Shown here: one piece after another, positions 11,513-48,019 of the stretch | Numbering within the stretch: the first letter of the stretch is position 1 | Layout: the number at the start of each line of letters is the position of its first letter | Made by a program: the position numbers and the translations under genes | Notes under the pieces: generated by a model | Seen by the model: only the letters and a program-made list of their open reading frames with translations | What the model was told of the DNA's origin: nothing | Database searches by the model: none | Assembly (NCBI GenBank): GCA_965601665.1 | Contig: OZ271833.1 | Span: 5,092 to 69,091, forward strand | DNA from: Gammaproteobacteria bacterium | GTDB lineage: Bacteria > Pseudomonadota > Gammaproteobacteria > Eutrophobiales > Eutrophobiaceae | Direction of reading: 5' to 3' | DNA length: 64,000 nt

Positions 11513-12100
11513 TTAAGGCTTTACAATTAAATGACAAAATAATGAAACTCCATCATATATTCTTTCAACTACTATTTGTTTAGATAAGGCAGATTGATCT
11601 GGTATTAATGAATCTGGATCATAAATAAAGAAAATCAGATTTCTACATGTAGGGTTATGCCTATAAGTTTCAATATCATCATGAAGTTCTTTTGTTATAT
11701 TTTTTCCATGGGAAGCATCTCTTATATATTTTACTTCAATAATAGTTTTTGCAGATGGGCTAATGAAATCTTTTATGGTGAATCTATTTGCAACTTTATC
11801 GGTAGGATTTTCTGGTGTTAGATCAAGTACCCAAGGCCTGAGCATTATATACAAAGCGTCTTGCACTGCTGCTTCAGAATCAAGTGTAAGTACTGTTTTT
11901 GTACTCCTGCGAGTATTCAAATACCGTACAACTTCTTGAAATTGTTCAAGCGCTGCAATAATTTGTGAAGTCTTTACAGTTCCAGCTTCTTCAGCATTGG
12001 GTTCAGATGAATGCTTTTTTGACAGTGTTGAAACAGCATTAGCTAATGCTGGTAAAGTTGATATATCAATCATCATTATTGCCTGAAACATCTCTGCCAA
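11513..12100 (-). CDS. hypothetical protein with a candidate PD-(D/E)xK nuclease motif
   Basis: 195 aa; D(FISPSAKTII)EVK fits D-x10-E-x-K; overlaps the upstream gene by 35 nt (operon); AT-rich cassette. Confidence 0.4.
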   Translation of the reverse strand: MAEMFQAIMMIDISTLPALANAVSTLSKKHSSEPNAEEAGTVKTSQIIAALEQFQEVVRYLNTRRSTKTVLTLDSEAAVQDALYIMLRPWVLDLTPENPTDKVANRFTIKDFISPSAKTIIEVKYIRDASHGKNITKELHDDIETYRHNPTCRNLIFFIYDPDSLIPDQSALSKQIVVERIYDGVSLFCHLIVKP

Positions 12101-12752
12101 AAATATAGCGAGCTATATCTTCAAAAATATATTCATAATCTCTTCTGCTTTTGTTTTCAGGTAAATGAATATGTAAATCAATATGAAACTGCGGACTATT
12201 GTCTTGACCAGGTGGATTATTTAAACCTGTTGCTCCAGAGTTTTGAGTACTAGAGGAGTTTACAGGTGCTATGCTTGCTCCAAAATCAGCATAATCACAT
12301 ATAGCTTTGAAAGTAGATATTTGATATTGAATAGCTCTGTCGCTACCACCTGAATGAACATTAAAATAATTTTTTAACGTATCATCAGACTCTCTATGAG
12401 GTTCATGTGAATTCTCAAAAATCGGTGCCCAGCAATTTTTTATTCCTTGAGCTAATATGCCTGGCCCAGATTCTGGCATCATAAACTGCTTATATTGATC
12501 TGTAGGTTCACCAGTTGAAGTTAATAAACCAACATTTTTGATAACTCGAAGTATTGTTGCATCGTTTGAATTTCTTAAACCCCATGACTTCAATGTCTCT
12601 CCTGTGATTTTGGTGGGTTTAGGTTTGGTTGGTACTAACTCTAAAAACCTTCTCAATGAGTTTGGGACGGTTGTATATGGAAATTTCGGGGTTGATATGC
12701 TTTCAGAACTTTTACTCCTTGTTTTCTTTTTAGCTACTTTTTTCTTTGCCAT
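12066..12752 (-). CDS. hypothetical protein with Lys-rich N-terminus (MAKKKVAKKKTRSK), partner of the nuclease-like gene
   Basis: 228-aa ORF, no recognisable domain; co-oriented and overlapping with 11513..12100. Confidence 0.4.
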   Translation of the reverse strand: MAKKKVAKKKTRSKSSESISTPKFPYTTVPNSLRRFLELVPTKPKPTKITGETLKSWGLRNSNDATILRVIKNVGLLTSTGEPTDQYKQFMMPESGPGILAQGIKNCWAPIFENSHEPHRESDDTLKNYFNVHSGGSDRAIQYQISTFKAICDYADFGASIAPVNSSSTQNSGATGLNNPPGQDNSPQFHIDLHIHLPENKSRRDYEYIFEDIARYIFGRDVSGNNDD

Positions 12753-18366: not shown

Positions 18367-19416
18367 TTAATTTAACCCATCCATTATTCCATTCTTGTTC
18401 GCATTGATTGTTTTAAGATAGTCAGCGTAGCCCAGAAATTCCTTTTCGTAACACTCCAGTGCCTTACGCAAATCATTGTCAGCAATTATCGGAGATAATG
18501 CCCGCGCCAGCACGTTACAGTTCCATAAGCCGATAACAGGTTGCTCTCCAAACGCGTAGCGTCCTTTCTCATCATTACTGCTGCTCACAAAGTTCGTATC
18601 GTGGTTCTCGGTAAAACTTGCTTCACCAAGATCCAGCGTGATCCCCAGTATGGATTGATTATCGGTATTCATCATGCCATGCGTGAAGCCAACATGTTGC
18701 CAATGAGCAATCAAACGCGCGGTACGTTTAACAACCTCTGAAAAAAAGTCTGCGTACTTATTTTTTTCATCATGAATGCAGTCTGAATAATAATAGTGGA
18801 TGACATAATCTGTTAATTGTGTGAGTGCCGCAGTATTTCGTTGAAAATAATAATTCTCAAAAGTACCAAAACGAATGAAGCCTGGGGCGACACGCGTAAT
18901 GATGGCCGCAGGCTCAAATTGACCTCTATAAACCTGTTCCTTGCCCGATATAACGCACAGGCTATGTGTACATGGCACGCCGAGCTTGATTAATTGCTGG
19001 CTTAAGTCGAATTCTCGTAAGCAACCGCTCAAGCTGGCACGGCCGTCAAAGTCTCGTGAGTAAGGTGTTTGTCCTGCGCCTTTCAGATGACATTCCCAAA
19101 AACCGGTTTCATTTTCTGTATCGAATAACAATATGGCCCGGCCATCGCCGAGCATCGGGTTGAAGTTGCCTAGCTGATGGCCTGCATAATCCTGTGCTAA
19201 TGGTTTGCTATCAGGAATTATCTTGTTCCCGCTAAACACCTGTAGAAATAGATCTGACTCGGTTTCATCTGCCGATAACCCTAACAATGTTGCCGTAATT
19301 GAATTAACAGTTTCGAACTCAGGATCGGTTAAACCCTGTGGCTGGAATTCGCAGTAGAAATGGTCGCCGAGTGAATAAAAGCGGTTTTTTACCGTGAGGT
19401 CTGTGAAAGAACCCAT
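18367..19416 (-). CDS. SelO/YdiU-family protein adenylyltransferase homologue, C-terminally short (349 aa against about 480)
   Basis: PLAQDYAGHQLGNFNPMLGDGRAILL and GFTHGMMNTDNQSILGITLD match SelO kinase-like core; ends near the position equivalent to about aa 365 of E. coli YdiU. Confidence 0.65.
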   Translation of the reverse strand: MGSFTDLTVKNRFYSLGDHFYCEFQPQGLTDPEFETVNSITATLLGLSADETESDLFLQVFSGNKIIPDSKPLAQDYAGHQLGNFNPMLGDGRAILLFDTENETGFWECHLKGAGQTPYSRDFDGRASLSGCLREFDLSQQLIKLGVPCTHSLCVISGKEQVYRGQFEPAAIITRVAPGFIRFGTFENYYFQRNTAALTQLTDYVIHYYYSDCIHDEKNKYADFFSEVVKRTARLIAHWQHVGFTHGMMNTDNQSILGITLDLGEASFTENHDTNFVSSSNDEKGRYAFGEQPVIGLWNCNVLARALSPIIADNDLRKALECYEKEFLGYADYLKTINANKNGIMDGLN

Positions 19417-21103: not shown

Positions 21104-21403
21104 TTAATGTATTTTTCCGTCAGAATTTTTTATCTGCGTACAATTGAAGGCGCAACGAGCTCTCGCCTGGAGAAGTTCGTCACGCCAGATTGTTTGTGCC
21201 TGCATTACCACTACCTCAACGACCGGGTTGGCGGAAAACTCAGGATGTGTCTGTATTTGTTTCATCATATGCACCAGCGCCATGGCATGATTCACCGATG
21301 GTTCTTTGACGTAACAGGACATCAATCGTACTAGTGATGACAGAAGGGCACATAGATCTGGAAATTCGGCTGGGTCTTTATCTTTACTGAACTTATTTTG
21401 CAT
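21104..21403 (-). CDS. small Cys-containing hypothetical protein (99 aa), putatively Fur-regulated
   Basis: ORF with two Fur-box-like palindromes 45-130 bp upstream. Confidence 0.4.
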   Translation of the reverse strand: MQNKFSKDKDPAEFPDLCALLSSLVRLMSCYVKEPSVNHAMALVHMMKQIQTHPEFSANPVVEVVVMQAQTIWRDELLQARARCAFNCTQIKNSDGKIH

Positions 21404-21703: not shown

Positions 21704-22117
21704 CTATGCGGCTTGTTTTGTTGCATCTATCATCACACCTGCAAGTGTCATGTAGGTTTCAGTCCATGCCGCTTTAACATCCTCGGTAAATCCATCTCCA
21801 AGCCCTTGCTCTAATGTCCATAATAACGCAGTGGCGACCTTGGCGTAGTCTTCTTCTTTTACACCGTAGCCGGCATGGCGTTTACCCATATCCTGTACCG
21901 CAGGAATGATGCTTTCCAGGTCATTCAGACTGCCTACGGCAGTATCAAGCATGGTCATGAGTTTCTTGCCTTGTTCCGTCATGTCATGGGTGAAAAGTGG
22001 TTTTACTTCAGGTGATAATTCAAACAACCTCGCATAAAACATTGCGGCCGCTTGTTCTGAAATCGGTTTTACCTGTGCCCATGTACTGGTAACCAGATCA
22101 ATTTGTTGTGGAGTCAT
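21704..22117 (-). CDS. single-domain bacterial hemoglobin (VHb-like, 3-on-3 globin), cytoplasmic
   Basis: 137 aa, no signal peptide; FYARLFELSPEVKPLF, distal Gln (QGKKL), proximal His (KRHAGYGV) align with Vitreoscilla hemoglobin, recalled from memory. Confidence 0.85.
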   Translation of the reverse strand: MTPQQIDLVTSTWAQVKPISEQAAAMFYARLFELSPEVKPLFTHDMTEQGKKLMTMLDTAVGSLNDLESIIPAVQDMGKRHAGYGVKEEDYAKVATALLWTLEQGLGDGFTEDVKAAWTETYMTLAGVMIDATKQAA

Positions 22118-22140: not shown

Positions 22141-22506
22141 TTAAGGTTTGTGACTTTTTGCCAATTCGACCATGTAGTCCACAGCCGCCTTGACTTCTTC
22201 ATCTGTCAACTCAGGATTTCCACCGCGTTCGGGCATCATGCTGTCATCGGGACCAAAGAATCCATTGATAGCATGTTCGTAAAGTACTTCCTTGCCCTTA
22301 TCGATGCGAAAACCCCATTCTTCATAATCAAGGGGGATAGGTGCACCTGCTATCCCCCAGCCATGACAGCCCTCGCACGTGTCCATCCAGATTGCCTTTG
22401 CCTTGATTAAATGCGCGTCATCAAAATCCTTGTAACGGGATTTATCTTCAGCTTGAACAATCGAAGTAAAAAACAATATTGAAATAACAAGTGTGAGGGC
22501 ACGCAT
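22141..22506 (-). CDS. periplasmic class I monoheme cytochrome c (c5/c552-like)
   Basis: signal peptide, CEGCHG heme site, MPERGGNP Met-ligand region. Confidence 0.8.
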   Translation of the reverse strand: MRALTLVISILFFTSIVQAEDKSRYKDFDDAHLIKAKAIWMDTCEGCHGWGIAGAPIPLDYEEWGFRIDKGKEVLYEHAINGFFGPDDSMMPERGGNPELTDEEVKAAVDYMVELAKSHKP

Positions 22507-22510: not shown

Positions 22511-23098
22511 TTAACCCTTAACCGGTATACGAATCACGACGCCGCCCATGACATCGCCAAGTTTGAAATCACTCTTGGGCGTATCCTTGTGCTCGTTATG
22601 GCAACTGACACATACCGGTGCTACGGCGGGGTCAGCATAAACGGCAGTGAAATAAGTGGTACCACCAAGTTCTTCTACACCGTAGTAGTTCTCACCCTTG
22701 TTTTCGGCAACATAGGCAAGGCCAGCTTTTTCTACCTCCGTGCGTGGTGCATTTTGCTTGTTGATAGGCCACAACGATTGCAGCGAATAGGTGAACTGGT
22801 CGGTCTTTTTGGAAACTTCTTCAGCACCAAAACGGAACATCTGTGCCGGTAACACCAGTGCCTTGTCATCTTCGAAGTGTTCGCTGGCCTTGATGACCTT
22901 ATCTTTCTTGACTAGTCTGTTCACAATTTTTTTTGTGTAGACAGCGCGGTCAGTTGACATTACCAGGTGTAACCAGTCCGCCAATTGCTTGGGTGTGAAT
23001 GTAGGGGTTTCCGCGATTTCCGATGAAGCAGTTAGCGGTATAGCCAGAACTGCGACGATCGAACTCGTCAGTAACACTTTTTTTAGTCTAGACATCAT
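22511..23098 (-). CDS. periplasmic DUF3365 (Tll0287-like) PAS-like heme-c protein
   Basis: signal peptide; single CVSCH near the C-terminus; SLWPINKQNAPRTEVEKAGL and GDVMGGVVIRIPV resemble the DUF3365 signature (..SLKPRNP.N.PD.WE.. and ..GDLRGAISV.IP). Confidence 0.6.
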   Translation of the reverse strand: MMSRLKKVLLTSSIVAVLAIPLTASSEIAETPTFTPKQLADWLHLVMSTDRAVYTKKIVNRLVKKDKVIKASEHFEDDKALVLPAQMFRFGAEEVSKKTDQFTYSLQSLWPINKQNAPRTEVEKAGLAYVAENKGENYYGVEELGGTTYFTAVYADPAVAPVCVSCHNEHKDTPKSDFKLGDVMGGVVIRIPVKG

Positions 23099-23129: not shown

Positions 23130-24566
23130 TTAAAACAATTCATTATTTTGCTGTTCACGAAGACGCTTTTTCTTTTCCTCTGCCTCAATCATCCGAACCT
23201 CGGCCATATCCATGCTTTCAATATGCACCGATGGTTGTCCGGAAAAATTATTTTTAATCAGTGCCAGATCAGCGAGTGCATCGATACTGAAGCCAAGGCT
23301 ATGGCAGTCCATGCAAACAGGTCTGATCATCTTTTCATTCGGTTTAAGCGTATCGTTCTGGTTATGCTGAACGATGCCCATATAAAACATGCCGTCCATG
23401 AATTCCTTTTCTATCCGTGGCATATGACAGGTAGCGCAGGTGACACCACTGTGTTCCGGTAGCTCGCCAACCTGTTCCTTTTTCCAGAGCTCGTGGTGCG
23501 GGGAATCGATATACGCCAGGCTATGTTCATCATTATGGCAACCCAGGCAGGCATCGATGGATGCGATTTTCGTATCGTAATCATGAGCACCATGACAGCT
23601 GTTGCAGGTTAGCTCCTCGTGTTTTGCGTCCTTTTTCATTGGCAGTTTTGCCATGGCAGGTGTCATGGGTGAAAGGTCGCGCTCCAGTTTTTCCACATCG
23701 AGACGCATACCGTGTTTACCTATGAGAAAGCCATCAACTTCTGGTGTGTGACAAGTTGCACAGGCCTTGTGGTCTGGCTTGTTCACCCAGACCGTTTCTT
23801 CCTCGATAGTTTGCTGATGGCAGGCATTACAATTCACACCGCTGTTGGCATGTGCAGTGTCGTACCAGGAATGGACGATCTCTATATCTACATCGATGTC
23901 CTGTGGGTAAACGGCTTCAACCAGTTTCAACCTCTCCAGTGGATAGTCCCTGCTGGGATAGTCGGGCAATACTGCTGCGTATTCAGCCAGGTTCAAATCA
24001 GGAGGTAGTTCCTGTCTATCCAGTATGTCGGGTTTATGCAGATGCTTGACCAGATAGTCTTCATACAGCGCCTGGTTGTCGTGATAATTGTGACAGCCGG
24101 CTGATGCACAGGTATCAAAGGCCATCCCTTCGTGGCTGGGTCTTTCCTTGGCAATGTCGTTGTGGCAAAGGTTGCAATAGTCCGGTGGCATGGTCAGGCC
24201 CATGTCCTGTGTGATTTCAGGATTGTGCTCCACGTGACAGGTGACGCAGTAGCGGGCGTCGAGTATTTCTACCCGGTCGGCATTCCTTGGATCGGTAAAT
24301 TTACTCTTTGGATGTTTATCCTTGTTTTCTTTCAATGCATCGCCATGGCAATTCATGCAGGCATTTTGTATCGCTTCTTCATCGGCGAACGATTCGCTAT
24401 GGCAGGCATTGCAGGCGAGTTCAATCTGGTGATGGCCATGGGTGGTTTCACCAGGAAGGAAAATGCTTTTATCTGCTGCCTTGTTATTAATCTTCATTAC
24501 CAGGTACGTTGTTAATGCAATCGTTAATAAAATCCATGTCAGCCATAGCCACGTGTTTCTTTTCAC
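23130..24566 (-). CDS. membrane-anchored multiheme c-type cytochrome (10 CxxCH plus one CX4CH-like CASAGCH)
   Basis: N-terminal TM anchor, then CNACH, CMNCH, CVTCH, CNLCH, CASAGCH, CNACH, CATCH, CNSCH, CLGCH, CATCH, CMDCH. Confidence 0.85.
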   Translation of the reverse strand: MKRNTWLWLTWILLTIALTTYLVMKINNKAADKSIFLPGETTHGHHQIELACNACHSESFADEEAIQNACMNCHGDALKENKDKHPKSKFTDPRNADRVEILDARYCVTCHVEHNPEITQDMGLTMPPDYCNLCHNDIAKERPSHEGMAFDTCASAGCHNYHDNQALYEDYLVKHLHKPDILDRQELPPDLNLAEYAAVLPDYPSRDYPLERLKLVEAVYPQDIDVDIEIVHSWYDTAHANSGVNCNACHQQTIEEETVWVNKPDHKACATCHTPEVDGFLIGKHGMRLDVEKLERDLSPMTPAMAKLPMKKDAKHEELTCNSCHGAHDYDTKIASIDACLGCHNDEHSLAYIDSPHHELWKKEQVGELPEHSGVTCATCHMPRIEKEFMDGMFYMGIVQHNQNDTLKPNEKMIRPVCMDCHSLGFSIDALADLALIKNNFSGQPSVHIESMDMAEVRMIEAEEKKKRLREQQNNELF

Positions 24567-24588: not shown

Positions 24589-26604
24589 CTAGAAGTAATA
24601 GGTTTTGAAGATGTGAAAACCAAGCAAAACGGGGATTGGCCAGAACAACAGGATATGCAACCAGTTACCAAGGCTTCGAACCTGTCTGACTGTCCTGGCT
24701 TCCAGTTTGTGTTCAAGCGCTATGACCGAACCAACCACGGTGCCCACCAGTAGCAGCGCGGTAAAACTCATCATCAACAGGAAATTAATGTTGTCGCCAA
24801 GGCGAAAGCCGGTATGCACGAGTAAAGCAAAGATCGCAGAACCGCCTAACAAGGCATGCAGCAGTCTCCAGATTGGAAAGTCACCCCAACTGAACCATTT
24901 AATTCGTTTGCGCAATGAAAGGATTAACACCAACGTGGTCATGCCCAGTAGCGTAAAGCCGCTGATTTGTTTAAACAGGCTATCTGTCCACAGCATGTCC
25001 CAGCGCCAGGGAACCTGTACGGTGCTGTTATACGGCACCGCGGGTAACAGGTAGGCAATAGCACACATGATGAAAATTACTGCCGAGCCATACCACAAGG
25101 GTTTCCATGCCCTGACAGGTTCGATATCTTTCTGGCCCAGCATGTTAACCAGCAAAGGTTTGCATGACCCGCATACCGTCGATGCGCCTGTTTTTTCAGC
25201 CAGCGCCTGTACCGTGCTGCATCCGTTCTCAATCTCCTTAGCTAGATAGCCGCGGGACAGGCCATTGCAGGAACAAATGGTTGCCTCGGCTGGCCAAAGG
25301 TTTACTTCTTCAAGACTGTCACTGTCCCACAGCTCGCCAGTTTCAACGAAGTGTTTTAGTTGCCAGGGGAAGAGTAATTTGCCTTTCTTTACATGTTCTT
25401 TAAGTTGAATCAGCTCGGCCCATTCACCAATGGCGATCACGCCGAGCAGCTGACCACGATATACATTCAGGCGTCGATAGAGTTTGTCCTTTTGGAAAAT
25501 ATACTGCGTGTAGGTACGCGTGCTTTCGTCAACGTCGCCCATGCTAAATACTGGCAGACCAACAACTTTAAGGCTGGTTGCCAGTACCGTGCCCTTGTAC
25601 TTACTGGGTATACTGGCGATATTGCGGGCAGCAATGCCTGCCTGTTCAAAACCGGGCGCAACAATGCCGTACACTTCGCCCAGGTGTTCACAACATTCAC
25701 CAATAGCATAAATATCGGGATCGCTGGTCTGCATACTGTCATTGACCTTGATGCCACGACCAAAGGCCAGTTTTGACTGCCTGGCCAATTCAATGTTGGG
25801 TCGAATCCCGGTTGACACAATAAGCGTGTCGCAATGAATGGTTTCTCCAGATCGCAGTTCTATTGATCGGATTCGGTTTTCACTATCACCGTGTATCGCT
25901 TTGACACTATCTTGCAGATAGACATGAATACCCATGCTAATGACGTGCTGTTTGAATAGCTCTGCGGCTGTTTCATCAAGTTGACGGAACATTAAATAGC
26001 GGTTGTGTTCGATGACACTGACATCAGTACTATATCTTTGCATTGCCCTGGCTGCTTCCAGGCCAAGTAGCCCGCCACCCAGCACAACGGTACGGCGACT
26101 GCGGACGCGGCGCGCGATGAGTTTTTCTGCATCATCCATGCTGCGAAACTGGTAGATGCCTTCGAGATCGATGCCTGGTATTTCAGGAATGAATGGACTG
26201 GAACCAGTAGCAAGGATTAGTTGCTCGTATTCCTGTACATTGCCATATTCATCCTCAATAAGTTTGTTCTCACGGTCTATGCGCTCTACACGGCAATTAA
26301 AACGCTGGATGAGTAGACTTGAATCAGTATTCGCACCGGTAATGACGATGTCTTCGTGGTTTACCTCACCGGCAAGCAAAGACGATAACCTCACACGGTT
26401 GTAAGGGACCCATGATTCATCACCATAAATAACGACAGGTTGCCCGGTTGAATAATCAAGCAACTCACTGACGAAACGCATACCAACCGGGCCACTGCCA
26501 ATGATGACAATGGGCTTTTGGCCATTCATAAGAATGCTTTCCGCTTGTCTTGTATCCAGTTTTAATGCTGTATTCACAATTTTCTGACCCAAAAAAAACG
26601 CCAC
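24589..26604 (-). CDS. fusion of a NirB-type FAD/NAD(P)H oxidoreductase, a BFD-like [2Fe-2S] domain and a C-terminal 5-TM di-heme-b (ferric-reductase-like) membrane domain
   Basis: IVIIGSGPVGMRF dinucleotide fold, GGGLLGLEAA second Rossmann, CSCNG...CGSCKP BFD motif, then 5 predicted TM helices with His pairs H-x13-H in two helices (LLHALLGGSAIFALLVH; WLHILLFWPIPVLLGFH). Confidence 0.75.
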   Translation of the reverse strand: MAFFLGQKIVNTALKLDTRQAESILMNGQKPIVIIGSGPVGMRFVSELLDYSTGQPVVIYGDESWVPYNRVRLSSLLAGEVNHEDIVITGANTDSSLLIQRFNCRVERIDRENKLIEDEYGNVQEYEQLILATGSSPFIPEIPGIDLEGIYQFRSMDDAEKLIARRVRSRRTVVLGGGLLGLEAARAMQRYSTDVSVIEHNRYLMFRQLDETAAELFKQHVISMGIHVYLQDSVKAIHGDSENRIRSIELRSGETIHCDTLIVSTGIRPNIELARQSKLAFGRGIKVNDSMQTSDPDIYAIGECCEHLGEVYGIVAPGFEQAGIAARNIASIPSKYKGTVLATSLKVVGLPVFSMGDVDESTRTYTQYIFQKDKLYRRLNVYRGQLLGVIAIGEWAELIQLKEHVKKGKLLFPWQLKHFVETGELWDSDSLEEVNLWPAEATICSCNGLSRGYLAKEIENGCSTVQALAEKTGASTVCGSCKPLLVNMLGQKDIEPVRAWKPLWYGSAVIFIMCAIAYLLPAVPYNSTVQVPWRWDMLWTDSLFKQISGFTLLGMTTLVLILSLRKRIKWFSWGDFPIWRLLHALLGGSAIFALLVHTGFRLGDNINFLLMMSFTALLLVGTVVGSVIALEHKLEARTVRQVRSLGNWLHILLFWPIPVLLGFHIFKTYYF

Positions 26605-27228
26605 AAGTCAATTGATAGCCAATCAACCATGTGACGCCTTTGTCCCTTAAATAATCGAGTAACTAAAACGTTACTGTTTCTACATATATCAATCCCGCCA
26701 TTAGGATCGCTAATTAGTTTGCAGAATTTATGCCATTAACTCATTCCCGTTTAAGTAATTGTTTTTCATGTAAATGAAAAATTTGTTATGTGCGTAAGCA
26801 GTATTTTTCTGCACTGTTTTGATTAACGCTGCATCATTATTGAACAAGACGAGTCTGCAAACGTGCTGCCAGTTTGACTTAATAATAAAAATGACAAGCA
26901 CAAAAATGCACATGTTTTTATCTGACCATTACTCTTTAACCTTCTACAACAAAATTTTAAGCCTGAAGTTGACCATGCATTAGCGTTAATAACGTGTTGT
27001 TGAAAATGTTTGGCACTTAAATCGGGCAAACAGGTTTAATTACGTTCTATTGTTGTGCATGACAAACTGGTCTTATTAAGGTTTGAAAATAAAAAATACA
27101 GGAATATCAGCTTGATATAATGTTGGCCTGGAATTTGCTGATTAGGATTACAAAACGTGGGAGTAATTATTTATTGCCCAGCGTTAAGTTGATTACAAAG
27201 GCGTAGTCACCGTATTGAATTGGTAAAG

Positions 27229-27268
27229 GAGCCACGCACAGCGTCATGTCTGTGCTGGCTTTTTTTTT
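27229..27268 (+). terminator. intrinsic terminator in the leader of the porin gene (candidate NasT/ANTAR-controlled attenuator)
   Basis: AGCCA-CGCACAG-cgtcatgt-CTGTG-CTGGCT followed by T9, 25 nt before the porin start; no upstream + strand gene to terminate. Confidence 0.6.
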
Positions 27269-27293
27269 GCTTTTTAAAAATGGGAGAACTTAA

Positions 27294-28565
27294 GTGAACT
27301 ACATAAAAACAAAACGGAGACTCATTGTTACCGGATTAATGAGTATCCTGTTGTTCGGACAGGCCAATGCAGAAGATGATTTTATTTCTGCCCTGAAGGG
27401 AGGCACGTTTAATTTTCAATCTAACACGCGTTACGAATATATAGATGATGAGTTCAGGGCTGCAGGGAACCAGGAGGCCGATGCCTTAACAACCAGGACG
27501 GCCCTCGGTTACAAAACCGGCGACTTTTACAACCTGTTTGGCTTCCTCGAGTTTGAAAACGTAACGAACATCACCAATGATAAGCAATACAACGATACGC
27601 AAAATGGTTTGACCCAGTTGCCGGTTATTGCCGACCCTGCCGGTACCGAGGTCAACCAGGCCTACCTGGGCATGAAGCTACTGGAAGGTTCGACGGTTAT
27701 CAAAACCGGAAGACAGCAGATTACGCCGCGTAAGGCGCCGTTCCACCGCTTCCTCGGTACAGTCTTATGGCGTCAGAACTACATGATGCAGGATGCGGTG
27801 ACGATCACTAATACGTCGTTGCCTTCTACAAAAATAATGGCTGGATACATATGGAATAACAATTTCATCACTGGTGATGACCGGGACATGAGCGCTCCTA
27901 TTGTTAACGTCCAATACAGTGGCTTTAAGTATGCAAAACTGGAAGGCTACTACTATGATCTTGAATTCGATGATCTTACTGCCTTGTCAACAACGACTTA
28001 TGGTTTCCGCGCCAGTGGTGGTGTCCCTGTTTTCAATGACAAAACAAAGTTTATTTATGCTGGTGAGTATGCCAGACAGGAAGAGGGTGATAATGCCCCG
28101 GTCGCCTACGATGCTGACTACTACCTTGTCGAAGCAGGGTTTAAAATGGGCTTCGACAATGAGTATCTGAAATCAGTATTGTTCAAGGCAAGCTATGAAG
28201 TACTCGGCAGTGACAACGGCGTACAGTCGTTCCGTACACCGCTAGGTACCAACCATGCCTTCCAGGGCTGGGCTGATTTGTTCCTGAACACGCCAGCGGC
28301 TGGTATTGAGGATACTTACTTTACGATTGTTGCCACCGGTAAATACCAGACAAAAATCATACTAAGATACGACATGTTTGAAGCGGATGAGGGTGGCTTT
28401 GATTACGGTGATGAAATCGGTGTCTGGTTTACCAAGAAGTTTGCCAAGAACTACACGTTGGGTATCAAGTATGCCGGTTACATGGGTGATTCCAATGCCG
28501 GAAATGCGCCCAGGTTTGCCGCTGATCTAACCCGGTTCTGGACCTACTTCACGATCGATTTCTAG
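27294..28565 (+). CDS. outer-membrane porin (probably anion-selective) linked to the nitrate-assimilation locus
   Basis: signal peptide, beta-barrel periodicity, C-terminal aromatic (TIDF). Confidence 0.6.
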   Translation: MNYIKTKRRLIVTGLMSILLFGQANAEDDFISALKGGTFNFQSNTRYEYIDDEFRAAGNQEADALTTRTALGYKTGDFYNLFGFLEFENVTNITNDKQYNDTQNGLTQLPVIADPAGTEVNQAYLGMKLLEGSTVIKTGRQQITPRKAPFHRFLGTVLWRQNYMMQDAVTITNTSLPSTKIMAGYIWNNNFITGDDRDMSAPIVNVQYSGFKYAKLEGYYYDLEFDDLTALSTTTYGFRASGGVPVFNDKTKFIYAGEYARQEEGDNAPVAYDADYYLVEAGFKMGFDNEYLKSVLFKASYEVLGSDNGVQSFRTPLGTNHAFQGWADLFLNTPAAGIEDTYFTIVATGKYQTKIILRYDMFEADEGGFDYGDEIGVWFTKKFAKNYTLGIKYAGYMGDSNAGNAPRFAADLTRFWTYFTIDF

Positions 28566-30581: not shown

Positions 30582-30797
30582 CTTGCGCCCAAGTTGTGCA
30601 CGAAATGCGCGCTAGCGAATATTTTGGTGCATCTCAAGTCGGTAACAGTCGATGTGCATTTCGAAAAATATAAGCAATATCAACATGTTTTCTTATTTAT
30701 CGCGATTGGCACACGTCTTGCGATATAGAATTGAGATTTAAGTATGAGGTTACGTTAGCCTCAAATTCATTACTGACAAATTGGTAATAAAGGGCAA

Positions 30798-30836
30798 AGG
30801 CGTCCTGAAGCTATCAGCTTCTGGACGCTTTTTTTA
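30798..30836 (+). terminator. leader terminator upstream of nrtA (likely NasT antitermination target)
   Basis: GGCGTCC-TGAAGC-tatca-GCTTC-TGGACGC followed by T7, 30 nt before the nrtA start. Confidence 0.65.
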
Positions 30837-30867
30837 TGCCTGAAATTCATAACTGGAGTAGGTATCA

Positions 30868-33445: not shown

Positions 33446-35122
33446 ATGTCATTTCTTAGTGTAACGAATCTAAATAAATCCTACGGTCATGGTAGCAATG
33501 CCACCCATGTGCTCAAGGACATTAACCTGACGATTACTGAAGGCGAGTTTGTCGCTATTGTTGGTTTTTCCGGTAGCGGCAAGACCACGCTGATCTCTGC
33601 CATCGCCGGTTTAATCCAGGGTGATGCAGGTAGTGTCATGCTGGATGGCAAGCAGGTTAAGGAACCCGGGCCAGAGCGTGGCGTGGTTTTCCAGAATTAT
33701 TCCCTCATGCCCTGGTTGACAGTGTATGGCAACGTCGCCCTGTCGGTAGATGCCATATACACGGACTGGTCGGCAGGACAGCGCCGCGCCCATACTGAAA
33801 AATATGTTGAAATGGTAGGTCTCTCTCACGCCACCAATCGAAGACCGGCTGAACTGTCCGGTGGTATGCGGCAGCGTGTGAACGTGGCGCGTGCCCTGGC
33901 TGCCAGTCCTGACGTGTTATTACTGGACGAACCCTTAAGCGCACTGGATGCACTGACACGGGCCAAGCTACAGGATGAAATTATTCGCATATGGGAGCAG
34001 GAAAAGAAAACCGTCATCCTGATTACCAACGACGTGGATGAGGGTCTCATCATGGCGGACCGCATTATTCCCCTGAATCCGGGACCGGATGCGACATTCG
34101 GGCCAGAGTTCATTGTCGATCTGGATCGGCCTCGTGATCGCAGCGCGATGAACCATGACGAAAAGTTTAAAAAACTGCGTGGCGAGATAACGCAGTATCT
34201 GATGAAGGTTGGCATCGATGAAACAGGTGGCAACACGGATAACGTCATACAACTGCCACCGGTAAAACCCATCGATCGTAGTGCCGAGGCAAGTAAAAGT
34301 ACCGTGCCAGGTGTTTTGCAGTCATATATGAAAAACCGCGGCGAACCCAAGTACCTGGAATTTTATAACCTGACCAAGGTGTACCCAACGCCGAAGGGGC
34401 CATTGACCGTTGTGGATGGCTTTAACCTGAACATGAATAAGGGTGAATTCATTTCCGTTATCGGTCACTCCGGTTGTGGTAAATCGACAGTGCTGTCAAT
34501 GACGGCAGGGCTGAATGACATCAGTGATGGTGGCATTGTGCTTGATAAACGTGAAATAGATGGCGCCGGTCCTGACCGCGCTGTCGTATTCCAGGCTCCC
34601 AGTCTATTCCCATGGATGACCGCATCAGAAAACGTGGCACTGGGTGTGGAAAGCGTTTATCCACATGCAACGTTAAAGGAGCGCAATGAAATCGTTGAAT
34701 ACTACCTGACCCGGGTTGGTCTTGGTGATGCATTACATAAAAAAGCATCAGAGCTTTCCAATGGCATGAAGCAACGCGTCGGCATAGCTCGCGCCTTCGC
34801 GCTGTCGCCAAAACTGTTATTACTGGATGAACCTTTCGGCATGTTGGACTCGTTAACACGCTGGGAATTACAGGAGGTGTTAATGGAAGTCTGGGCGCGC
34901 ACGCAGGTAACGGCCATCGTTGTTACCCATGATGTGGATGAGGCCATTCTCCTTGCCGACCGCGTGGTCATGATGACTAATGGACCCAACGCCAAAGTGG
35001 GGAAAGTCATGGAAGTTGACTTGCCACGCCCACGCAGCCGCAAGGCGTTGGTTTCGCACCCGGATTATTACCGCTACCGGGAAGAGTTAATTACGTTCCT
35101 TGCTGAATGTGACAACCATTAA
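33446..35122 (+). CDS. nitrate ABC transporter ATPase with two fused ATP-binding domains (NrtC/NrtD-like)
   Basis: two Walker A motifs (GFSGSGKTT; GHSGCGKST), two LSGG signatures. Confidence 0.85.
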
Positions 35123-38038: not shown

Positions 38039-39304
38039 ATGTCGATGTCGGGTAAAAAAATTATCGTAATCGGCAATGGCATGGCCGCGATTCGATTCCT
38101 CGAGCAGCTATTTGAAGATGACGCATCTACGTGTCGCGTTACCGTCTTTGGCCAGGAGCCCCACGCGGGTTATAACCGGATACTGTTATCACCATTGTTA
38201 AGCGGTGAGCAAACACTGGAAGACGTCATTACACACCCTCGTAGTTGGTATCAGGATAGAAATATCGAATTAATTACCAACACGCGTATTGACAACATCG
38301 ATAGCGAAAACAAATGCATTACGGACCATAATGGCGACATACATCATTATGACCAGTTGATTATTGCGACAGGCTCCAGGCCATTTGTCCCTGATTTACC
38401 GGGTACGGATCTTGATGGCGTATTTACCTATCGTACGATTGATGATGTAGATGCCATGCTGACTGCTGGCAATCAGGGTAAACATGCCGTTGTAATCGGT
38501 GGAGGATTACTTGGACTGGAAGTTGCCTATGGTCTTAAAGCCAGGGGTTTGGATGTCAGCGTTTGCCATCGGCACTGTACACTAATGGAAAAACAGCTGG
38601 ATGACACCGCCTCCCGGCATCTTTCGTCCATACTGGCACAAAAAGATATAGAGATACTTACCGAGGCCAACACCTTGAAACTGGAAGGTGATGCGCGAGT
38701 AAAGTCTGTCGTGCTCGATGATGGCAGGCAATTACCCGCGGATATAGTCGTGTTTGCTGTTGGCATTGTGCCCGACATCACGCTGGCAACGGCTGCGGGT
38801 ATCGACTGTGAGAAAGGCATACTGGTAGATGAAAAAATGCAAACCTCGGTGCCTGATATTTTTGCTATTGGTGAATGTGCTCAGCATGATGGCGTTACCT
38901 ACGGGCTGGTAGCGCCTCTCTATGAGCAGGCAACAGTACTCGCCAGCTATCTTAACGGCGATAGACAGGCGGCCTACCAGGGCTCAATCAATGCAACAGG
39001 TTTAAAAGTAACCGGTGTCCATCTCTATTCTGCCGGTCAATTTAACGAAGACGAACAATGTAAAACCATGCAGCTGAGTGATGCTGCCAATAGGCTCTAC
39101 CGTAAGCTTGTTTTCAAAAACAGCAGGTTGATTGGTGTGCTGTTGTTTGGTGATATACGCGGCTCCAACTGGTTCCATGAACTTATCGAAACCGGGCAAA
39201 CTATCGACAACATTGATCCGTTAATGATCTTTGGCGAACCGGAATGGTTGTTACCCCTCTCGAATGAAGATGACATGACGCTGGCCGAGGCGAGCTATGC
39301 CTGA
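38039..39304 (+). CDS. NasC-like FAD/NAD(P)H oxidoreductase (electron-transfer subunit for assimilatory nitrate reductase), paralogous to the NirB N-terminal domain
   Basis: 421 aa; IIVIGNGMAAIRF, GGGLLGLEVA, GECAQHDG; overlaps the nasA start by 8 nt. Confidence 0.8.
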   Translation: MSMSGKKIIVIGNGMAAIRFLEQLFEDDASTCRVTVFGQEPHAGYNRILLSPLLSGEQTLEDVITHPRSWYQDRNIELITNTRIDNIDSENKCITDHNGDIHHYDQLIIATGSRPFVPDLPGTDLDGVFTYRTIDDVDAMLTAGNQGKHAVVIGGGLLGLEVAYGLKARGLDVSVCHRHCTLMEKQLDDTASRHLSSILAQKDIEILTEANTLKLEGDARVKSVVLDDGRQLPADIVVFAVGIVPDITLATAAGIDCEKGILVDEKMQTSVPDIFAIGECAQHDGVTYGLVAPLYEQATVLASYLNGDRQAAYQGSINATGLKVTGVHLYSAGQFNEDEQCKTMQLSDAANRLYRKLVFKNSRLIGVLLFGDIRGSNWFHELIETGQTIDNIDPLMIFGEPEWLLPLSNEDDMTLAEASYA

Positions 39305-41969
39305 CAACAAATCCTGTGCAGTGAAAACAACCTGTCCCTACTGCGGTGTTGGCTGTGGTGTCATAGCAACGGTGAATGAGAAGGGTAACGTCTCTATACA
39401 GGGGGACAAGGATCATCCTGCAAATTTTGGTCGGCTGTGCTCCAAGGGATCGGCACTGGGCGAGACCGTTGATCTCGACCATCGATTGTTAAGACCGCAG
39501 GTGAATCAACAGGTTGTCAGTTGGGAACAGGCACTGGATGAGGTGGCAGAACGATTCAGGGAAACGATCGCAATGCACGGCAAGGAATCCGTTGCGTTTT
39601 ACGTGTCAGGCCAGTTGTTGACCGAAGACTACTATGTTGCCAATAAACTCATGAAGGGCTTTATTGGCAGTGGCAATATTGATACGAACTCACGCCTTTG
39701 CATGTCTTCTGCTGTTGCCGGGCATAAACGTGCCTTCGGTAACGACACCGTAGGTCTTTGTTATGAAGACCTGGAACAGGCAGACGTTATTACGCTCATC
39801 GGCTCGAACGTAGTCTGGTGCCACCCGGTACTGTATCAGCGCATTGAAGCGGCGAGAAAAAAACATAATACGAAGATAGTTGTTGTTGATCCCAGGCAGA
39901 CCCACAGTTGTGAAGGGGCCGATCTGCATCTACCGATTAAGCCGGGAACAGATGCCACGTTATTCAACGGACTGTTAAGTTATCTGGCTGAAAACGAGCT
40001 GCTGGATAACGATTATATAAAAAACCATACCAACGGTTTTGATGCTGCTATAGACGTAGCCAGGAAAACTGCAGGCGATATCGACACCGTGGCAAGGTGC
40101 TGTGATATTGGAGTTGGTGATTTGCTTCAGTTTTACAAGCTATTTGCAGCCACAGAAAAAAACATCAGCTTTTTTTCCATGGGCATCAACCAGTCGTCCA
40201 GCGGCGTCGACAAGGTGAATACCATTATTAATGTGCACCTTGCCACCGGTCGCATTGGCAAACCGGGTATGGGCGCCTTTTCGATCACCGGGCAACCTAA
40301 TGCAATGGGTGGCAGGGAAGTTGGCGGGCTGGCATCGACGTTGGCAGCCCATATGGATTTCACCGACACACATATTGATCGGGTTGGCCGTTTCTGGGGA
40401 ACTGACAACGTTGCCACAGGACCCGGATTGAAAGCCGTAGACCTGTTTCGCAACATTGACGAGGGCAAGGTCAAGGCACTATGGGTGATGGCAACCAATC
40501 CGGCAGTGAGTATCCCTGATGCCAGCGCGGTAGAGCGTGCCATTAGCAAATGTAATTTTGTTGTGGTCTCGGATTGTATTAGTAATACAGATACGACGCG
40601 ACATGCTGATGTACTGTTGCCGGCGCTGGGCTGGGGAGAAAAATCCGGCACGGTGACCAATTCGGAAAGACGTATTTCAAGACAGCGAACATTCCTGTCG
40701 CCGCCTGCAGAGGCAAAACCGGACTGGTGGATCATCTGCCAGGTAGCGCGTCGACTTGGCTTTGAGGACGGGTTTGATTTCCGGTCAGAAGCCGATATTT
40801 TTCGTGAACATGCAGCCTTGTCGGGTTATGAAAACCAGGGCACAAGGGATTTCGATATTAGTGCTTACACCAATATTGATGATAACGCCTATGATAACCT
40901 GGTGCCGGTGCAATGGCCTGTAAATGATTCACACCCGGAAGGCACACAGCGTCTGTTGACCAATGGTCATTTTTATACTGCCGATAATAAGGCCTGCTTT
41001 ATTGCTGTTACTCCAAGACTGCCAGTTGAAATTACCAGTAACAGCTATCCCCTGGTGTTAAATACCGGTCGTGTCAGGGACCACTGGCATACAATGACAC
41101 GCACTGCAAAATCAAAGCGATTGTCACGTCACATACGCGAACCCTTTGCGCAGTTGCATCCTGCGACGGCTGCCGATTACAACATCAGCCACGATCAACT
41201 GGTAGAGATTACAAGTCAATGGGGTAGCGTGGTAGTGCGTGCCGACATTACCAATAGACAGCGCAGAGGTGAAATATTCGTTCCACTGCACTGGAATGAT
41301 CAATTTTCTGCAAGGGCGCGCGTAGATACGGTGGTGAATCCACATGTCGATCCTGTCTCCGGACAACCTGAGTTCAAACACACGCCGGTTAACATCACAC
41401 CTGTACAACATCAGTGGTTTGGTTTCATGTTGAGCCGCAAGGAATATTCACTACCCATGATTTACTGGACGAAACTACGCGAGGAAAAAAGCTGGCGTTA
41501 CGAGTTTTCGGATACTTGCCCGTATACAATTGACTGGTTTAAGCAACGGATGCGAAATGGCCGCGACTACGATTGGGTCGAGTTTGTCGATGAGATCAAT
41601 AATGTAACACGCTATCTATGGTTCGATGAGCAGGAATTGCAGGGCTGCATATTCACAGCAGACAGCTACGAGGCATTACCTGCAAGAAACTGGTTATCCA
41701 GTCAATTTTCCCGGTTAGAACTGGCAATGTCACAACGAACGCAGTTACTAACTGCTTCAGGCGAGAACAACATTGAAGATCAGGGTGAAGTGATCTGTTC
41801 CTGCTTTAACGTGGGTAAAAACGCCATACTTGATTGCATTAATAAATCCTGTTCATCCAGTGTTGATACGATAGGTGTGGCTTTAAAGGCCGGAACCAAC
41901 TGTGGCAGTTGTAAGCCGGAGATCAAGCATCTCATCAGTAACAGCAACAGGCAGCAATCACCTGATTAA
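39297..41969 (+). CDS. nasA: assimilatory nitrate reductase catalytic subunit (molybdopterin, 4Fe-4S, C-terminal BFD 2Fe-2S)
   Basis: N-terminal CPYCGVGCG cluster, MopB domains, C-terminal ICSCFNVG...CGSCKPEI. Confidence 0.92.
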   Translation: MPDNKSCAVKTTCPYCGVGCGVIATVNEKGNVSIQGDKDHPANFGRLCSKGSALGETVDLDHRLLRPQVNQQVVSWEQALDEVAERFRETIAMHGKESVAFYVSGQLLTEDYYVANKLMKGFIGSGNIDTNSRLCMSSAVAGHKRAFGNDTVGLCYEDLEQADVITLIGSNVVWCHPVLYQRIEAARKKHNTKIVVVDPRQTHSCEGADLHLPIKPGTDATLFNGLLSYLAENELLDNDYIKNHTNGFDAAIDVARKTAGDIDTVARCCDIGVGDLLQFYKLFAATEKNISFFSMGINQSSSGVDKVNTIINVHLATGRIGKPGMGAFSITGQPNAMGGREVGGLASTLAAHMDFTDTHIDRVGRFWGTDNVATGPGLKAVDLFRNIDEGKVKALWVMATNPAVSIPDASAVERAISKCNFVVVSDCISNTDTTRHADVLLPALGWGEKSGTVTNSERRISRQRTFLSPPAEAKPDWWIICQVARRLGFEDGFDFRSEADIFREHAALSGYENQGTRDFDISAYTNIDDNAYDNLVPVQWPVNDSHPEGTQRLLTNGHFYTADNKACFIAVTPRLPVEITSNSYPLVLNTGRVRDHWHTMTRTAKSKRLSRHIREPFAQLHPATAADYNISHDQLVEITSQWGSVVVRADITNRQRRGEIFVPLHWNDQFSARARVDTVVNPHVDPVSGQPEFKHTPVNITPVQHQWFGFMLSRKEYSLPMIYWTKLREEKSWRYEFSDTCPYTIDWFKQRMRNGRDYDWVEFVDEINNVTRYLWFDEQELQGCIFTADSYEALPARNWLSSQFSRLELAMSQRTQLLTASGENNIEDQGEVICSCFNVGKNAILDCINKSCSSSVDTIGVALKAGTNCGSCKPEIKHLISNSNRQQSPD

Positions 41970-44341: not shown

Positions 44342-44377
44342 TTACCGCCAGTTTTTCTTTTCGCAGGATTCATTACT

Positions 44378-47726: not shown

Positions 47727-47838
47727 GAAAAAAGCTTGATCTCCTGCTGCAGTGCAATATAATGTTGCAATGCAATATGAAAACGCAAAAATATAGTTAA
47801 CTTACTGATATTAATAAAATTATTTAAGGGTCAATACA

Positions 47839-47967: not shown

Positions 47968-47990
47968 ACCCCGCCCTACTGTTACAACAT

Positions 47991-48019
47991 CAAAAGCCGA
48001 ATCGAGTTCGGCTTTTTTT
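47991..48019 (+). terminator. intrinsic terminator
   Basis: GCCGAA-tcgagt-TTCGGC followed by T7. Confidence 0.7.

Follow-up and report, generated by a model that had tools for sequence, protein, structure and literature searches.

A flavo-iron-sulfur protein with a predicted di-heme membrane domain, encoded with periplasmic cytochromes near nitrate-assimilation genes

Gene A and its three-part product

Gene A lies on the minus strand of the 64,000-nucleotide stretch of DNA analysed here (the window), at positions 24589 to 26529 including the stop codon, and is followed on the same strand by genes B to E. Its product of 646 amino acids is 100% identical to the database protein P0001. The first-pass annotation had placed an open reading frame at 24589–26604 without stating the strand; the frame exists and belongs to the minus strand, and a plus-strand reading of the interval was rejected as it is full of stop codons. 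The GTG codon at 26604 was rejected as a start because it falls within the leader terminator (CAAAGGCGTCAC...GTGGCGTTTTTTTT, 26591–26642), which makes the ATG at 26529 the real start of gene A.

Residues 1–464 comprise a NirB-type FAD/NAD(P)H domain and a BFD [2Fe-2S] domain, and residues 475–646 form five transmembrane (TM) helices. The three-part architecture described earlier is thereby borne out, with a flavodomain of the NirB/ferredoxin-reductase type first, the BFD [2Fe-2S] domain next and five membrane helices at the C-terminus. A Pfam scan returned Pyr_redox_2, Pyr_redox, Rubredoxin_C and Fer2_BFD. The FAD/NAD(P)H domain of the pyridine-nucleotide-disulfide-oxidoreductase type occupies residues 6–286 (25672–26514, minus strand; Pyr_redox_2, E 1e-56) and is followed by the Rubredoxin_C-type C-terminal domain of the reductase at residues 317–383 (25381–25581, minus strand; PF18267, E 7e-12). 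Foldseek aligned about 400 residues of the flavodomain with putidaredoxin reductase, BphA4 and others (E 1e-33, target TM-score 0.85–0.91), and its FAD, NAD and C-terminal parts are all folded as in the NADH-dependent ferredoxin reductases PdR, BphA4 and TodA, which are flavoproteins with two dinucleotide-binding domains. Within the window, NirB shares 32% identity with gene A over residues 7–464, the BFD domain included (E 9e-62), and a 421-residue, Flp-like reductase encoded at 38039 next to NasA shares 37% (E 8e-81). The flavodomain is thus present three times in the window, as had been claimed.

The BFD-like [2Fe-2S] domain spans residues 417–464 (25138–25281, minus strand; Fer2_BFD, PF04324, E 1e-9). 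The CSC...CGSC pattern by which it had been recognised corresponds to Cys419, Cys421, Cys453 and Cys456, all of which are invariant in the homologue alignment, and a profile search gave a match to the bacterioferritin-associated ferredoxin 4e6k.

The gene A family comprises 842 cluster representatives from about 186 species. Its hosts include Thiogranum, Sedimenticola, Ca. Tenderia, Thiohalocapsa, Sulfuricaulis, Spongiibacter and Noviherbaspirillum, and those of the partner cytochrome B include Halioglobus and Haliea. An apparent EAL fusion among the relatives (P0146) looks chimeric and was set aside. Our literature search found no paper on the family or its architecture.

The membrane domain

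The five-helix membrane domain (residues 475–646; 24592–25107, minus strand) is predicted to be a di-heme b domain. The AlphaFold2 model (pLDDT 94.8) places its helices at residues 475–494, 518–541, 551–573, 580–604 and 611–645, with the chain ending at most five residues after TM5, and so bears out the five hydrophobic C-terminal helices proposed before. Both histidine-pair strings quoted in the first-pass annotation, LLHALLGGSAIFALLVH and WLHILLFWPIPVLLGFH, are present in the product and constitute two H-x13-H pairs, H558/H572 on TM3 and H625/H639 on TM5, each with i,i+14 spacing; the two helices run parallel in a bundle that the model predicts with high confidence. On the predicted cytoplasmic side lie His558 (codon 24856–24858, minus strand; 100% conserved) and His625 (24655–24657, minus strand; 99–100%), and on the periplasmic side His572 (24814–24816, minus strand) and His639 (24613–24615, minus strand), each conserved to 100%.

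The four histidines are invariant in 120 close homologues and 99–100% conserved in 151 representatives with a median identity of 39%, which amounts to 99–100% conservation across more than 270 homologues overall. Loss of these residues in orthologues had been named as the finding that would speak against a heme domain, and they are retained. This conservation is far beyond chance. The membrane helices also hold many invariant glycine, arginine and proline residues. With K+R counts of 10.8 on the predicted cytoplasmic loops versus 3.1 on the periplasmic loops, the positive-inside rule gives an N-in orientation.

Pfam assigns no family above threshold to the last approximately 180 residues. The DUF4405 profile (PF14358) gave recurrent sub-threshold matches in 13 of the 27 members scanned, always over TM2–TM3, with all 27 staying below the Pfam gathering threshold (best 19.6 bits, E about 1e-3, against 26.7 bits). 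DUF4405 and the ferric reductase domain (FRD) superfamily belong to the same Pfam clan of 2-heme cytochromes. Given this kinship, an independent invention of the membrane part is a possibility and no more. Four centrally placed, highly conserved histidines are a trait of the DUF4405 family, for one member of which experiments have demonstrated heme b binding (PMC11334425), and the membrane domain of gene A displays the same trait.

The proposed bis-His pattern of the ferric-reductase/NOX/MsrQ type stands as far as the arrangement is concerned, because two histidine pairs with the spacing typical of FRD proteins (H-x13-H / H-x12/13-H) are found on the third and fifth helices of an N-in domain; homology to FRD proteins was not demonstrated, and the domain has five helices versus the six of that superfamily. 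Among the 27 members, Ferric_reduct (PF01794) gave no significant match (best E 0.11, in four members) and Ni_hydr_CYTB (PF01292) none either (E 0.22, in two). In hhalign comparisons, the probability was 0.1% with E. coli MsrQ and 0.4% with CybB; both reference sequences were validated by their profile scores (MsrQ as Ferric_reduct at 60.5 bits, CybB at 87.5 bits). Homologues of MsrQ and CybB are absent from 86 gene A loci. Single-sequence and profile searches of PDB sequences with the membrane domain matched no membrane protein and no FRD chain, and a Foldseek search of the PDB gave no match with E < 0.1. The NOX5 TM domain and SpNOX were among the fold matches, and a word-indexed search with the membrane domain by itself recovered only fragments of gene A's own family. 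DUF4405 is the only family with recurrent, albeit sub-threshold, matches, and no Pfam heme-b family reached its threshold.

Partner genes and nitrate-assimilation context

Gene B (23130–24566, minus strand) follows gene A in 69 of 71 loci and encodes a 478-residue cytochrome c with an N-terminal membrane anchor, ten CXXCH motifs and one CX4CH motif. Gene C (22511–23098, minus strand; 67 of 68 loci) specifies a periplasmic Tll0287-like (sCache_heme) mono-heme c protein (PF11845, E 2e-20), gene D (22141–22506, minus strand; 33 of 64 loci) a periplasmic class-I monoheme cytochrome c (Cytochrome_CBB3, Cytochrom_C), and gene E (21704–22117, minus strand; 50 of 64 loci) a cytoplasmic single-domain globin (Globin, E 1e-15). 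The order A-B-C is kept in 67–69 of about 70 loci from Gamma-, Beta- and Alphaproteobacteria.

Similarity of gene B to NrfA and octaheme nitrite reductase (ONR) is modular and confined to di-heme modules. As it has 12 conserved non-motif histidines for 11 hemes and no CXXCK motif, B may be a pure wire in which no catalytic site was identified. A role as a catalytic nitrite reductase of the NrfA/ONR type was considered and found unsupported, given that CXXCK is missing, that the histidines suffice for all hemes to be bis-His ligated, and that only di-heme modules are similar. The "undecaheme" UetJ cluster of Ca. Tenderia is a different system. The globin encoded by gene E has conserved Tyr28 (B10), Gln49 (E7) and His81 (F8), and gene C contains no cysteine outside its CXXCH motif. 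The lack of a cysteine ligand in gene C, alongside the TyrB10/GlnE7 globin, matches the NO-binding class of sCache_heme proteins (bioRxiv 10.64898/2026.02.01.703092).

In rare variants of gene A the NirB-type domain is replaced by BFD and FNR-type FAD/NAD modules, with the membrane domain and its histidines kept; one variant carries EF-hands, and cNMP variants exist as well. The FNR-type variants retain not only the membrane domain but also orthologous partners B (47–50% identity) and C (65% identity), which makes the dehydrogenase an input module that can be exchanged.

The gene A operon adjoins nasT/nrtABC/nirBD. Nitrate-assimilation genes are located no more than 8 kb away in 36 of 55 loci, and one third of the loci have no nas genes within that distance. 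Upstream of gene A lies a σ54-type promoter-like element (TGGCATAAATTCTGCA; 26720–26735, minus strand), and the corresponding TGGC-N8-TGC motif occurs upstream of A in 56 of 78 loci versus 9% of background windows. Between this element and the start codon, a leader hairpin with a U-run resembles an intrinsic terminator (26591–26642, minus strand); such structures precede gene A in 45 of 78 loci versus 7% of background windows. Across loci, the promoter and terminator motifs are 8-fold enriched upstream of A. The leaders of A, the porin gene and nrtA have a σ54-like promoter followed by a terminator leader in common. Because it shares AAAGGCGTC with the nrtA leader, the leader of gene A is a presumed target of antitermination by NasT (ANTAR). 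An Rfam scan of the whole window at gathering thresholds detected only one tRNA.

Proposed electron path, alternatives and known systems

The near-constant position of gene B after gene A and the retention of membrane domain and partners in the FNR-type variants strengthen the earlier idea of a transmembrane NAD(P)H electron conduit. The domain identities, the conserved ligands, the topology, the synteny, the regulatory motifs and the swap of the dehydrogenase module are established; heme binding, the direction of electron flow, direct transfer from A to B and the terminal substrate are inferred. We propose, with a probability of roughly 0.6, that the product of gene A belongs to the nitrate-assimilation regulon and passes electrons from cytoplasmic NAD(P)H via FAD, the [2Fe-2S] cluster and a pair of hemes in the membrane to multi-heme cytochromes of the periplasm. 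Gene A would then encode the subunit through which electrons enter a periplasmic cytochrome system, one regulated together with nitrate assimilation. At the cytoplasmic face, the ferredoxin-reductase-type domain would oxidise NAD(P)H on FAD and hand single electrons to the [2Fe-2S] cluster of the BFD domain, which a tether of about 10 residues links to TM1. Two b-type hemes between TM3 and TM5, one near the cytoplasm with H558 and H625 as predicted ligands and one near the periplasm with H572 and H639, would carry the electrons across the membrane. From the outer heme they could reach the membrane-anchored 11-heme cytochrome B, and from there protein C with its heme-c Cache domain, the monoheme cytochrome D, or both. 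Such a route would avoid the quinone pool and run with the membrane potential. While nitrate is being assimilated, it might provide the electrons with which a nitrogen oxide (NO, nitrite or hydroxylamine) is reduced or detoxified in the periplasm, with the co-encoded globin dealing with NO in the cytoplasm.

The membrane domain might instead be quinone-linked: like the di-heme anchors NarI, FdnI or SdhC it could feed a quinone site, and B would be a quinol dehydrogenase in its own right, comparable to NrfH or CymA. Such a site within the membrane domain is possible. Yet no profile match to Ni_hydr_CYTB or other anchors was obtained, NADH:quinone transfer is already served by NDH-1 and NDH-2, and the near-obligate A-B-C synteny outlasts the exchange of the dehydrogenase, which points to a dedicated physical partnership; we consider this model unlikely. 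Still less probable is a membrane domain that merely anchors the protein or holds a metal other than heme iron, with the flavo-[2Fe-2S] part acting as a cytoplasmic reductase for the globin (an NO dioxygenase resembling Flp-Bjgb) or for NasA/NirB. This would fit the paralogy of the flavodomain to the Flp-like reductase next to NasA, the frequent co-occurrence of the globin gene, and the finding that Flp of Bradyrhizobium is the partner of both nitrate reductase and globin (PMC4724949). However, four invariant, depth-matched histidines and many invariant glycine, arginine and proline residues are not expected in a passive anchor, the globin is missing from about 20% of loci whereas B and C are near-universal, and a soluble Flp-like reductase is already encoded in the window.

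We give very little credence to two further models. A NOX-like oxidase, whose outer heme reduces O2 to periplasmic superoxide and whose cytochromes are accessory or scavenging partners of a ROS generator, would follow the same electron logic from NAD(P)H via flavin to two hemes, and the EF-hand variant as well as the NOX5 and SpNOX fold matches are reminiscent of it. Against it, no FRD profile match was significant, and both the constant company of an 11-heme cytochrome gene and the regulation shared with nitrate assimilation argue for cytochromes as acceptors. Inward flow, by which periplasmic cytochromes fed by lithotrophy would donate via the hemes to [2Fe-2S]/FAD and thereby generate NAD(P)H or supply cytoplasmic nitrate and nitrite reductases, is suggested by the many hosts that are sulfur or iron lithotrophs or relatives of electrotrophs (Thiogranum, Sedimenticola, Ca. 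Tenderia, Thiohalocapsa, Sulfuricaulis). Such flow would, however, run uphill in redox potential and against the membrane potential with no coupling-ion module, and many other hosts appear, by taxon name alone, to be aerobic heterotrophs (Spongiibacter and Noviherbaspirillum for A, Halioglobus and Haliea for B).

Taking outward transfer to the cytochromes further, it is tempting to speculate, although the odds are against it, that genes A–E form an unrecognised, quinone-independent and NAD(P)H-powered periplasmic system that reduces or detoxifies NO, hydroxylamine or nitrite. In many Proteobacteria of sea and soil, this system would add a third enzymatic branch to the NtrC/NasT nitrate-assimilation regulon, and gene A would represent a new class of bacterial transmembrane NAD(P)H:cytochrome c oxidoreductase whose dehydrogenase modules can be exchanged. 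To our knowledge, periplasmic multi-heme enzymes of Gram-negative bacteria receive their electrons from the quinone pool via NrfH, CymA, NapC or bc1. The path from NAD(P)H via FAD, [2Fe-2S] and two b hemes to cytochrome c would, if true, be a new way of bringing reductant of low potential from the cytoplasm to the periplasm. It would account for hundreds of genes that now bear the wrong name "nitrite reductase large subunit", and it would add a five-gene heme-protein module to the nitrate-assimilation regulon, with a bearing on how widespread environmental Proteobacteria deal with NO and nitrite. Nature's own experiment in swapping dehydrogenase modules onto one membrane conduit would be seen in the FNR-type, EF-hand and cNMP variants.

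In its predicted electron path from NAD(P)H via flavin to two stacked bis-His b hemes and across the membrane, gene A resembles NOX5, SpNOX and FRE, and would be a bacterial counterpart of NOX/STEAP logic made from other building parts. The N-in orientation, the histidine pairs on TM3 and TM5, and the variant with EF-hands and an FNR-type module add to this likeness. Unlike NOX/FRD proteins, gene A has a flavodomain of the ferredoxin-reductase type with two dinucleotide folds located N-terminal to the membrane domain, an inserted [2Fe-2S] relay, and five instead of six helices; its acceptor is probably not O2 or Fe(III) but a multi-heme cytochrome c. The statement that known FRD proteins always carry a C-terminal FNR-type flavodomain overlooks STEAP, in which a cytoplasmic NADPH-binding domain is N-terminal to the heme-containing membrane domain, as is the dehydrogenase domain of gene A. 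STEAP proteins differ in being eukaryotic, in having six helices and in lacking an Fe-S cluster; their dehydrogenase domain is F420-oxidoreductase-like, and they use a single heme together with an FAD inside the membrane. The superoxide oxidase CybB, a cytochrome b561 of E. coli (5oc0), shows no profile similarity to gene A, is not fused to a dehydrogenase, and has its heme ligands distributed differently among the helices. DUF4405, MsrQ-like and PepSY-like cytochromes likewise have four central histidines on membrane helices, but they are stand-alone six-TM proteins tied to ApbE flavinylation or ferrosomes (PMC11334425), whereas the five-helix domain of gene A forms one chain with a flavo-Fe-S dehydrogenase and has c-type cytochromes as partners. 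Neither ApbE nor any flavinylation protein was present among the Pfam-labelled neighbours at two loci (L001 and L002) and the scanned open reading frames of the window; the 80-locus survey covered homologues of 17 window proteins.

The N-terminal 464 residues of gene A are homologous to NirB and Flp-type reductases, with which gene A also shares neighbourhood and regulation. It matches positions 1–468 of the 794 in the NirB model TIGR02374 (399.6 bits versus a cut-off of 578), and the Pfam scan found neither NIR_SIR nor NIR_SIR_ferr. Since the siroheme/[4Fe-4S] NIR_SIR catalytic half of NirB is absent and a membrane domain takes its place, gene A is not a nitrite reductase, despite its database names. 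In its proposed role of feeding electrons from the membrane into periplasmic multi-heme cytochromes built from NrfA/ONR-family modules, gene A would have functional analogues in NrfH/CymA/NapC and NrfBCD; those systems are quinol-fed and respiratory, whereas gene A would draw directly on NAD(P)H without a quinone.

Domain structure of the gene A product

Gene A, the minus-strand gene for the flavo-[2Fe-2S] membrane protein under study, lies in a 671-codon open reading frame (24589..26604), the first 25 codons of which are non-coding and overlap a strong leader hairpin and U-run (26591–26642). The window product is identical to the database protein P0001, which comprises 646 aa starting at ATG 26529 and provides the residue numbers used throughout. 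Pfam recognized Pyr_redox_2 (E 1e-56), Pyr_redox, Rubredoxin_C and Fer2_BFD, and found no above-threshold family in the last ~180 residues. The NCBIfam NirB model matched below its cut-off and only over model positions 1–468 of 794. The first-pass annotation was correct in counting the flavodomain three times in the window, as the product aligns with the window's NirB (32% identity over residues 7–464 including the BFD domain; E 9e-62) and with the 421-aa reductase encoded beside NasA (37%; E 8e-81). In Foldseek, the flavodomain groups with NADH-dependent [2Fe-2S]-ferredoxin reductases, among them putidaredoxin reductase, BphA4 and TodA, at E 1e-33 and a target TM-score of 0.85–0.91; none of the matched solved structures covers the C-terminal part. 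The four BFD cysteines are invariant among homologues, and the linker from the BFD domain to the first transmembrane helix (TM1) is only ~10 residues long.

Confident AlphaFold2 models built with 107–132 homologues (full length: pLDDT 88.4, pTM 0.75; C-terminal domain: pLDDT 94.8) contain five transmembrane helices at residues 475–494, 518–541, 551–573, 580–604 and 611–645. Lysine plus arginine averages 10.8 on the predicted cytoplasmic segments versus 3.1 on the periplasmic ones over 120 homologues, a bias that fits an N-in topology with a cytoplasmic NAD(P)H domain. H558 in TM3 and H625 in TM5 are located near the cytoplasmic helix ends, H572 (TM3) and H639 (TM5) near the periplasmic ends, and both pairs show i,i+14 spacing. 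All four histidines are invariant in 120 close homologues and 99–100% conserved across 151 cluster representatives (median identity 39%). Similarly conserved in this domain are G524, R540-K541-R542, R555, T573-G574, G578, G596 and P631/P633.

The membrane domain shares its ligand pattern and topology with FRD, MsrQ and DUF4405-type cytochromes, yet FRD membership failed on sequence and on the six-helix test. When 27 members were scanned individually against Pfam, 13 gave a sub-threshold match to DUF4405, always over TM2–TM3 (best 19.6 bits; cut-off 26.7), and weak matches were obtained to DUF4079 (4/27), Ferric_reduct (4/27; best E 0.11), DUF6713 (3/27) and Ni_hydr_CYTB (2/27). A single-sequence search of PDB sequences gave no match, a profile search returned only bacterioferritin-associated ferredoxin, matching the BFD part, and Foldseek against the PDB found nothing significant. 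Alignment by hhalign to Pfam-validated MsrQ and CybB sequences was also negative. Because sequence, profile and fold searches gave no significant match, we call the membrane domain an orphan family. Heme b binding has been demonstrated experimentally for a DUF4405 protein, whose four central histidines were described as resembling those in MsrQ and PepSY-like proteins (PMC11334425).

Conserved partners and exchange of the dehydrogenase module

Four genes, B to E, follow A on the same strand. Gene B (23130–24566) encodes a multi-heme cytochrome c with an N-terminal hydrophobic anchor, ten CXXCH motifs and one CX4CH motif, all of which are kept in 69/75 homologues. It has di-heme modules in common with NrfA, octaheme nitrite reductase and a HAO-like protein (E 3e-9 to 3e-6). 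No CXXCK motif occurs in B, and 12 histidines outside the motifs are conserved against a heme count of 11; B may therefore serve as a wire and not as a catalyst. Gene C (22511–23098) specifies a Tll0287-like (sCache_heme) protein that bears a signal peptide and, at 50–91% identity, is better conserved than any other product of the cluster. It has no cysteine outside CXXCH, and the axial cysteine of Tll0287 is absent; conserved His44, His74, Met47, Met87 and several tyrosines are candidate distal ligands. Gene D (22141–22506) encodes a monoheme cytochrome c and gene E (21704–22117) a globin with conserved TyrB10, GlnE7 and HisF8, the signature of NO-dioxygenase-type globins. A 99-aa open reading frame of no matching family is present 3' of E (21104–21403, minus strand). 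Among fetched loci with enough sequence, B is found 3' of A in 69/71, C in 67/68, D in 33/64 and E in 50/64. Locus L032 has no detectable B or C and L041 no B, and the globin gene occurs as a tandem triplet at L081 and in two copies at L024 and L077.

Searching 1.84 billion representatives exhaustively with HMMER yielded 842 proteins at E <= 1e-3 (414 at E <= 1e-30), nearly all of ~660 aa and with the same architecture. Their sources give them no name beyond "FAD-dependent oxidoreductase" or "nitrite reductase large subunit". When one genome per species was scanned for the motif, the family was detected in 186 genomes. Uncultured Gamma- and Betaproteobacteria account for most of these, and some Alphaproteobacteria and a single Phycisphaera MAG are also among them; the MAG (L049) carries the cluster outside the Proteobacteria. 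Cultured hosts include Spongiibacter thalassae, Sedimenticola hydrogenitrophicus and Noviherbaspirillum sedimenti.

Three representatives are rare variants of divergent architecture (loci L083–L086), with EF-hand or cNMP-binding domains in place of the NirB-type domain. P0165 is arranged as EF-hand, BFD, FAD_binding_6, NAD_binding_1 and membrane domain, whereas P0235 and P0286 begin with two or three cNMP-binding domains followed by BFD, an FNR module and the membrane domain. The position of the FNR-type FAD/NAD module between BFD and membrane domain gives an 'inverted NOX5-like' layout. All three proteins keep the four histidines and are followed by an orthologue of B (47–50% identity) and, where the contig allows, by a Tll0287-like gene (65% identity). 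Thus, two unrelated NAD(P)H-flavin modules have become joined to one membrane domain with one periplasmic partner set.

Association with nitrate assimilation

The A–E cluster and a porin-like gene are divergently oriented; on the far side of the latter lie nasT (ANTAR), a NasS-like gene, nrtABC(D), nirB, nirD, a Flp-like reductase gene and nasA. Nitrate-assimilation genes are located <=8 kb from A in 36/55 loci with full flanks, and nasT-A-B-C-D-E-nrtA is a frequent gene order. Common to the leaders of A (26591–26735, minus strand), the porin gene (27124–27270, plus) and nrtA (30707–30840, plus) are a sigma54-type element (TGGCAT-N5-CTGCA, TGGCCT-N5-TTGCT and TGGCAC-N5-TTGCG, respectively) and a terminator hairpin after AAAGG(C/A)G. 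Across 78 loci, the TGGC-N8-TGC motif precedes A in 72% and a terminator-like structure does so in 58%; in random windows drawn from these loci, the frequencies are 9% and 7%, respectively. NtrC/sigma54 control together with NasT antitermination is typical of nitrate-assimilation operons, and from these leader features we infer that the A–E operon belongs to that regulon. The A leader further contains a small hairpin with an AAUGGC hexaloop (26690–26709), reminiscent of ANTAR targets.

Several neighboring genes deserve mention. For the 423-aa protein encoded at 27294–28565 (plus), which carries a signal peptide, neither Pfam nor NCBIfam gave a match; many loci have genes for its homologues, two of them flagged Alginate_exp-like, beside nas/nrt genes, and the protein is a possible outer-membrane channel related to nitrate or nitrite. 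The nitrate ABC-transporter ATPase (33446–35122, plus; 558 aa) has two ABC_tran stretches in a fused NrtC/NrtD-like arrangement, and nirB starts 22 nt 3' of its gene. The reading frame of the Flp-like NAD(P)H reductase (421 aa) runs into the start of the one for NasA, an 890-aa protein with a C-terminal BFD domain (38039–41969, plus), which suggests that nitrate reductase and its reductase are translationally coupled. Genes for a Crp/Fnr-type regulator, a DsbD_2 protein, a CcoI-like P-type ATPase, OmpW, the cbb3 oxidase (ccoNOP) and ccoG occupy 43574–54742; thus, the host has a high-affinity oxidase adjoining the nitrate cluster. Elsewhere in the window are a Ser/Thr protein kinase with a C-terminal PilZ domain (1643–2899, plus), a DpnII/MboI-type restriction endonuclease domain protein overlapping a DUF5343 protein (11513–12752, minus) and a SelO/YdiU-like frame of only 349 aa (18367–19416, minus), which matches positions 2–328 of a 466-position profile and may be truncated or frameshifted.

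Proposed electron path and relation to known systems

That the gene A system is real, conserved and uncharacterised is well supported. Alongside the domain identities, ligand invariance, topology, synteny, module swap and regulatory motifs established here, we propose a mechanism with moderate confidence. Electrons would pass from NAD(P)H via FAD to the [2Fe-2S] cluster, then to an inner heme b (H558/H625) and an outer heme b (H572/H639), presumably both occupied, and from there, by probable direct contact of A with B, to the 11-heme cytochrome and via C and/or D to a periplasmic acceptor. The substrate, assigned with low confidence, would be an N-oxide (NO, nitrite or hydroxylamine), as suggested by the nitrate setting, the NO-type globin and the cysteine-less sCache_heme protein; no catalytic site for it was identified.

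The strongest comparative argument that the membrane domain is a conduit from a cytoplasmic dehydrogenase to its partners is the module swap with B and C constant. We consider it less probable that this domain is a mere membrane tether for the globin or the NasA reductase, or a quinone-reactive anchor, and a NOX-like oxidase likewise ranks lower. Electron flow is probably outward, because this direction would be downhill in redox potential and along the membrane potential; inward flow is less probable.

As a proposed NAD(P)H-driven di-heme transmembrane exporter, the gene A product functionally resembles NOX, FRE and STEAP, and in its proposed role of feeding periplasmic multi-heme cytochromes it resembles NrfH and CymA. 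Membership in any of these families could not be demonstrated for it, and literature searches found no description of its architecture. Unlike all of them, it combines a NirB/ferredoxin-reductase-type dehydrogenase and an Fe-S relay with a five-helix orphan membrane domain, and its route would bypass quinones.
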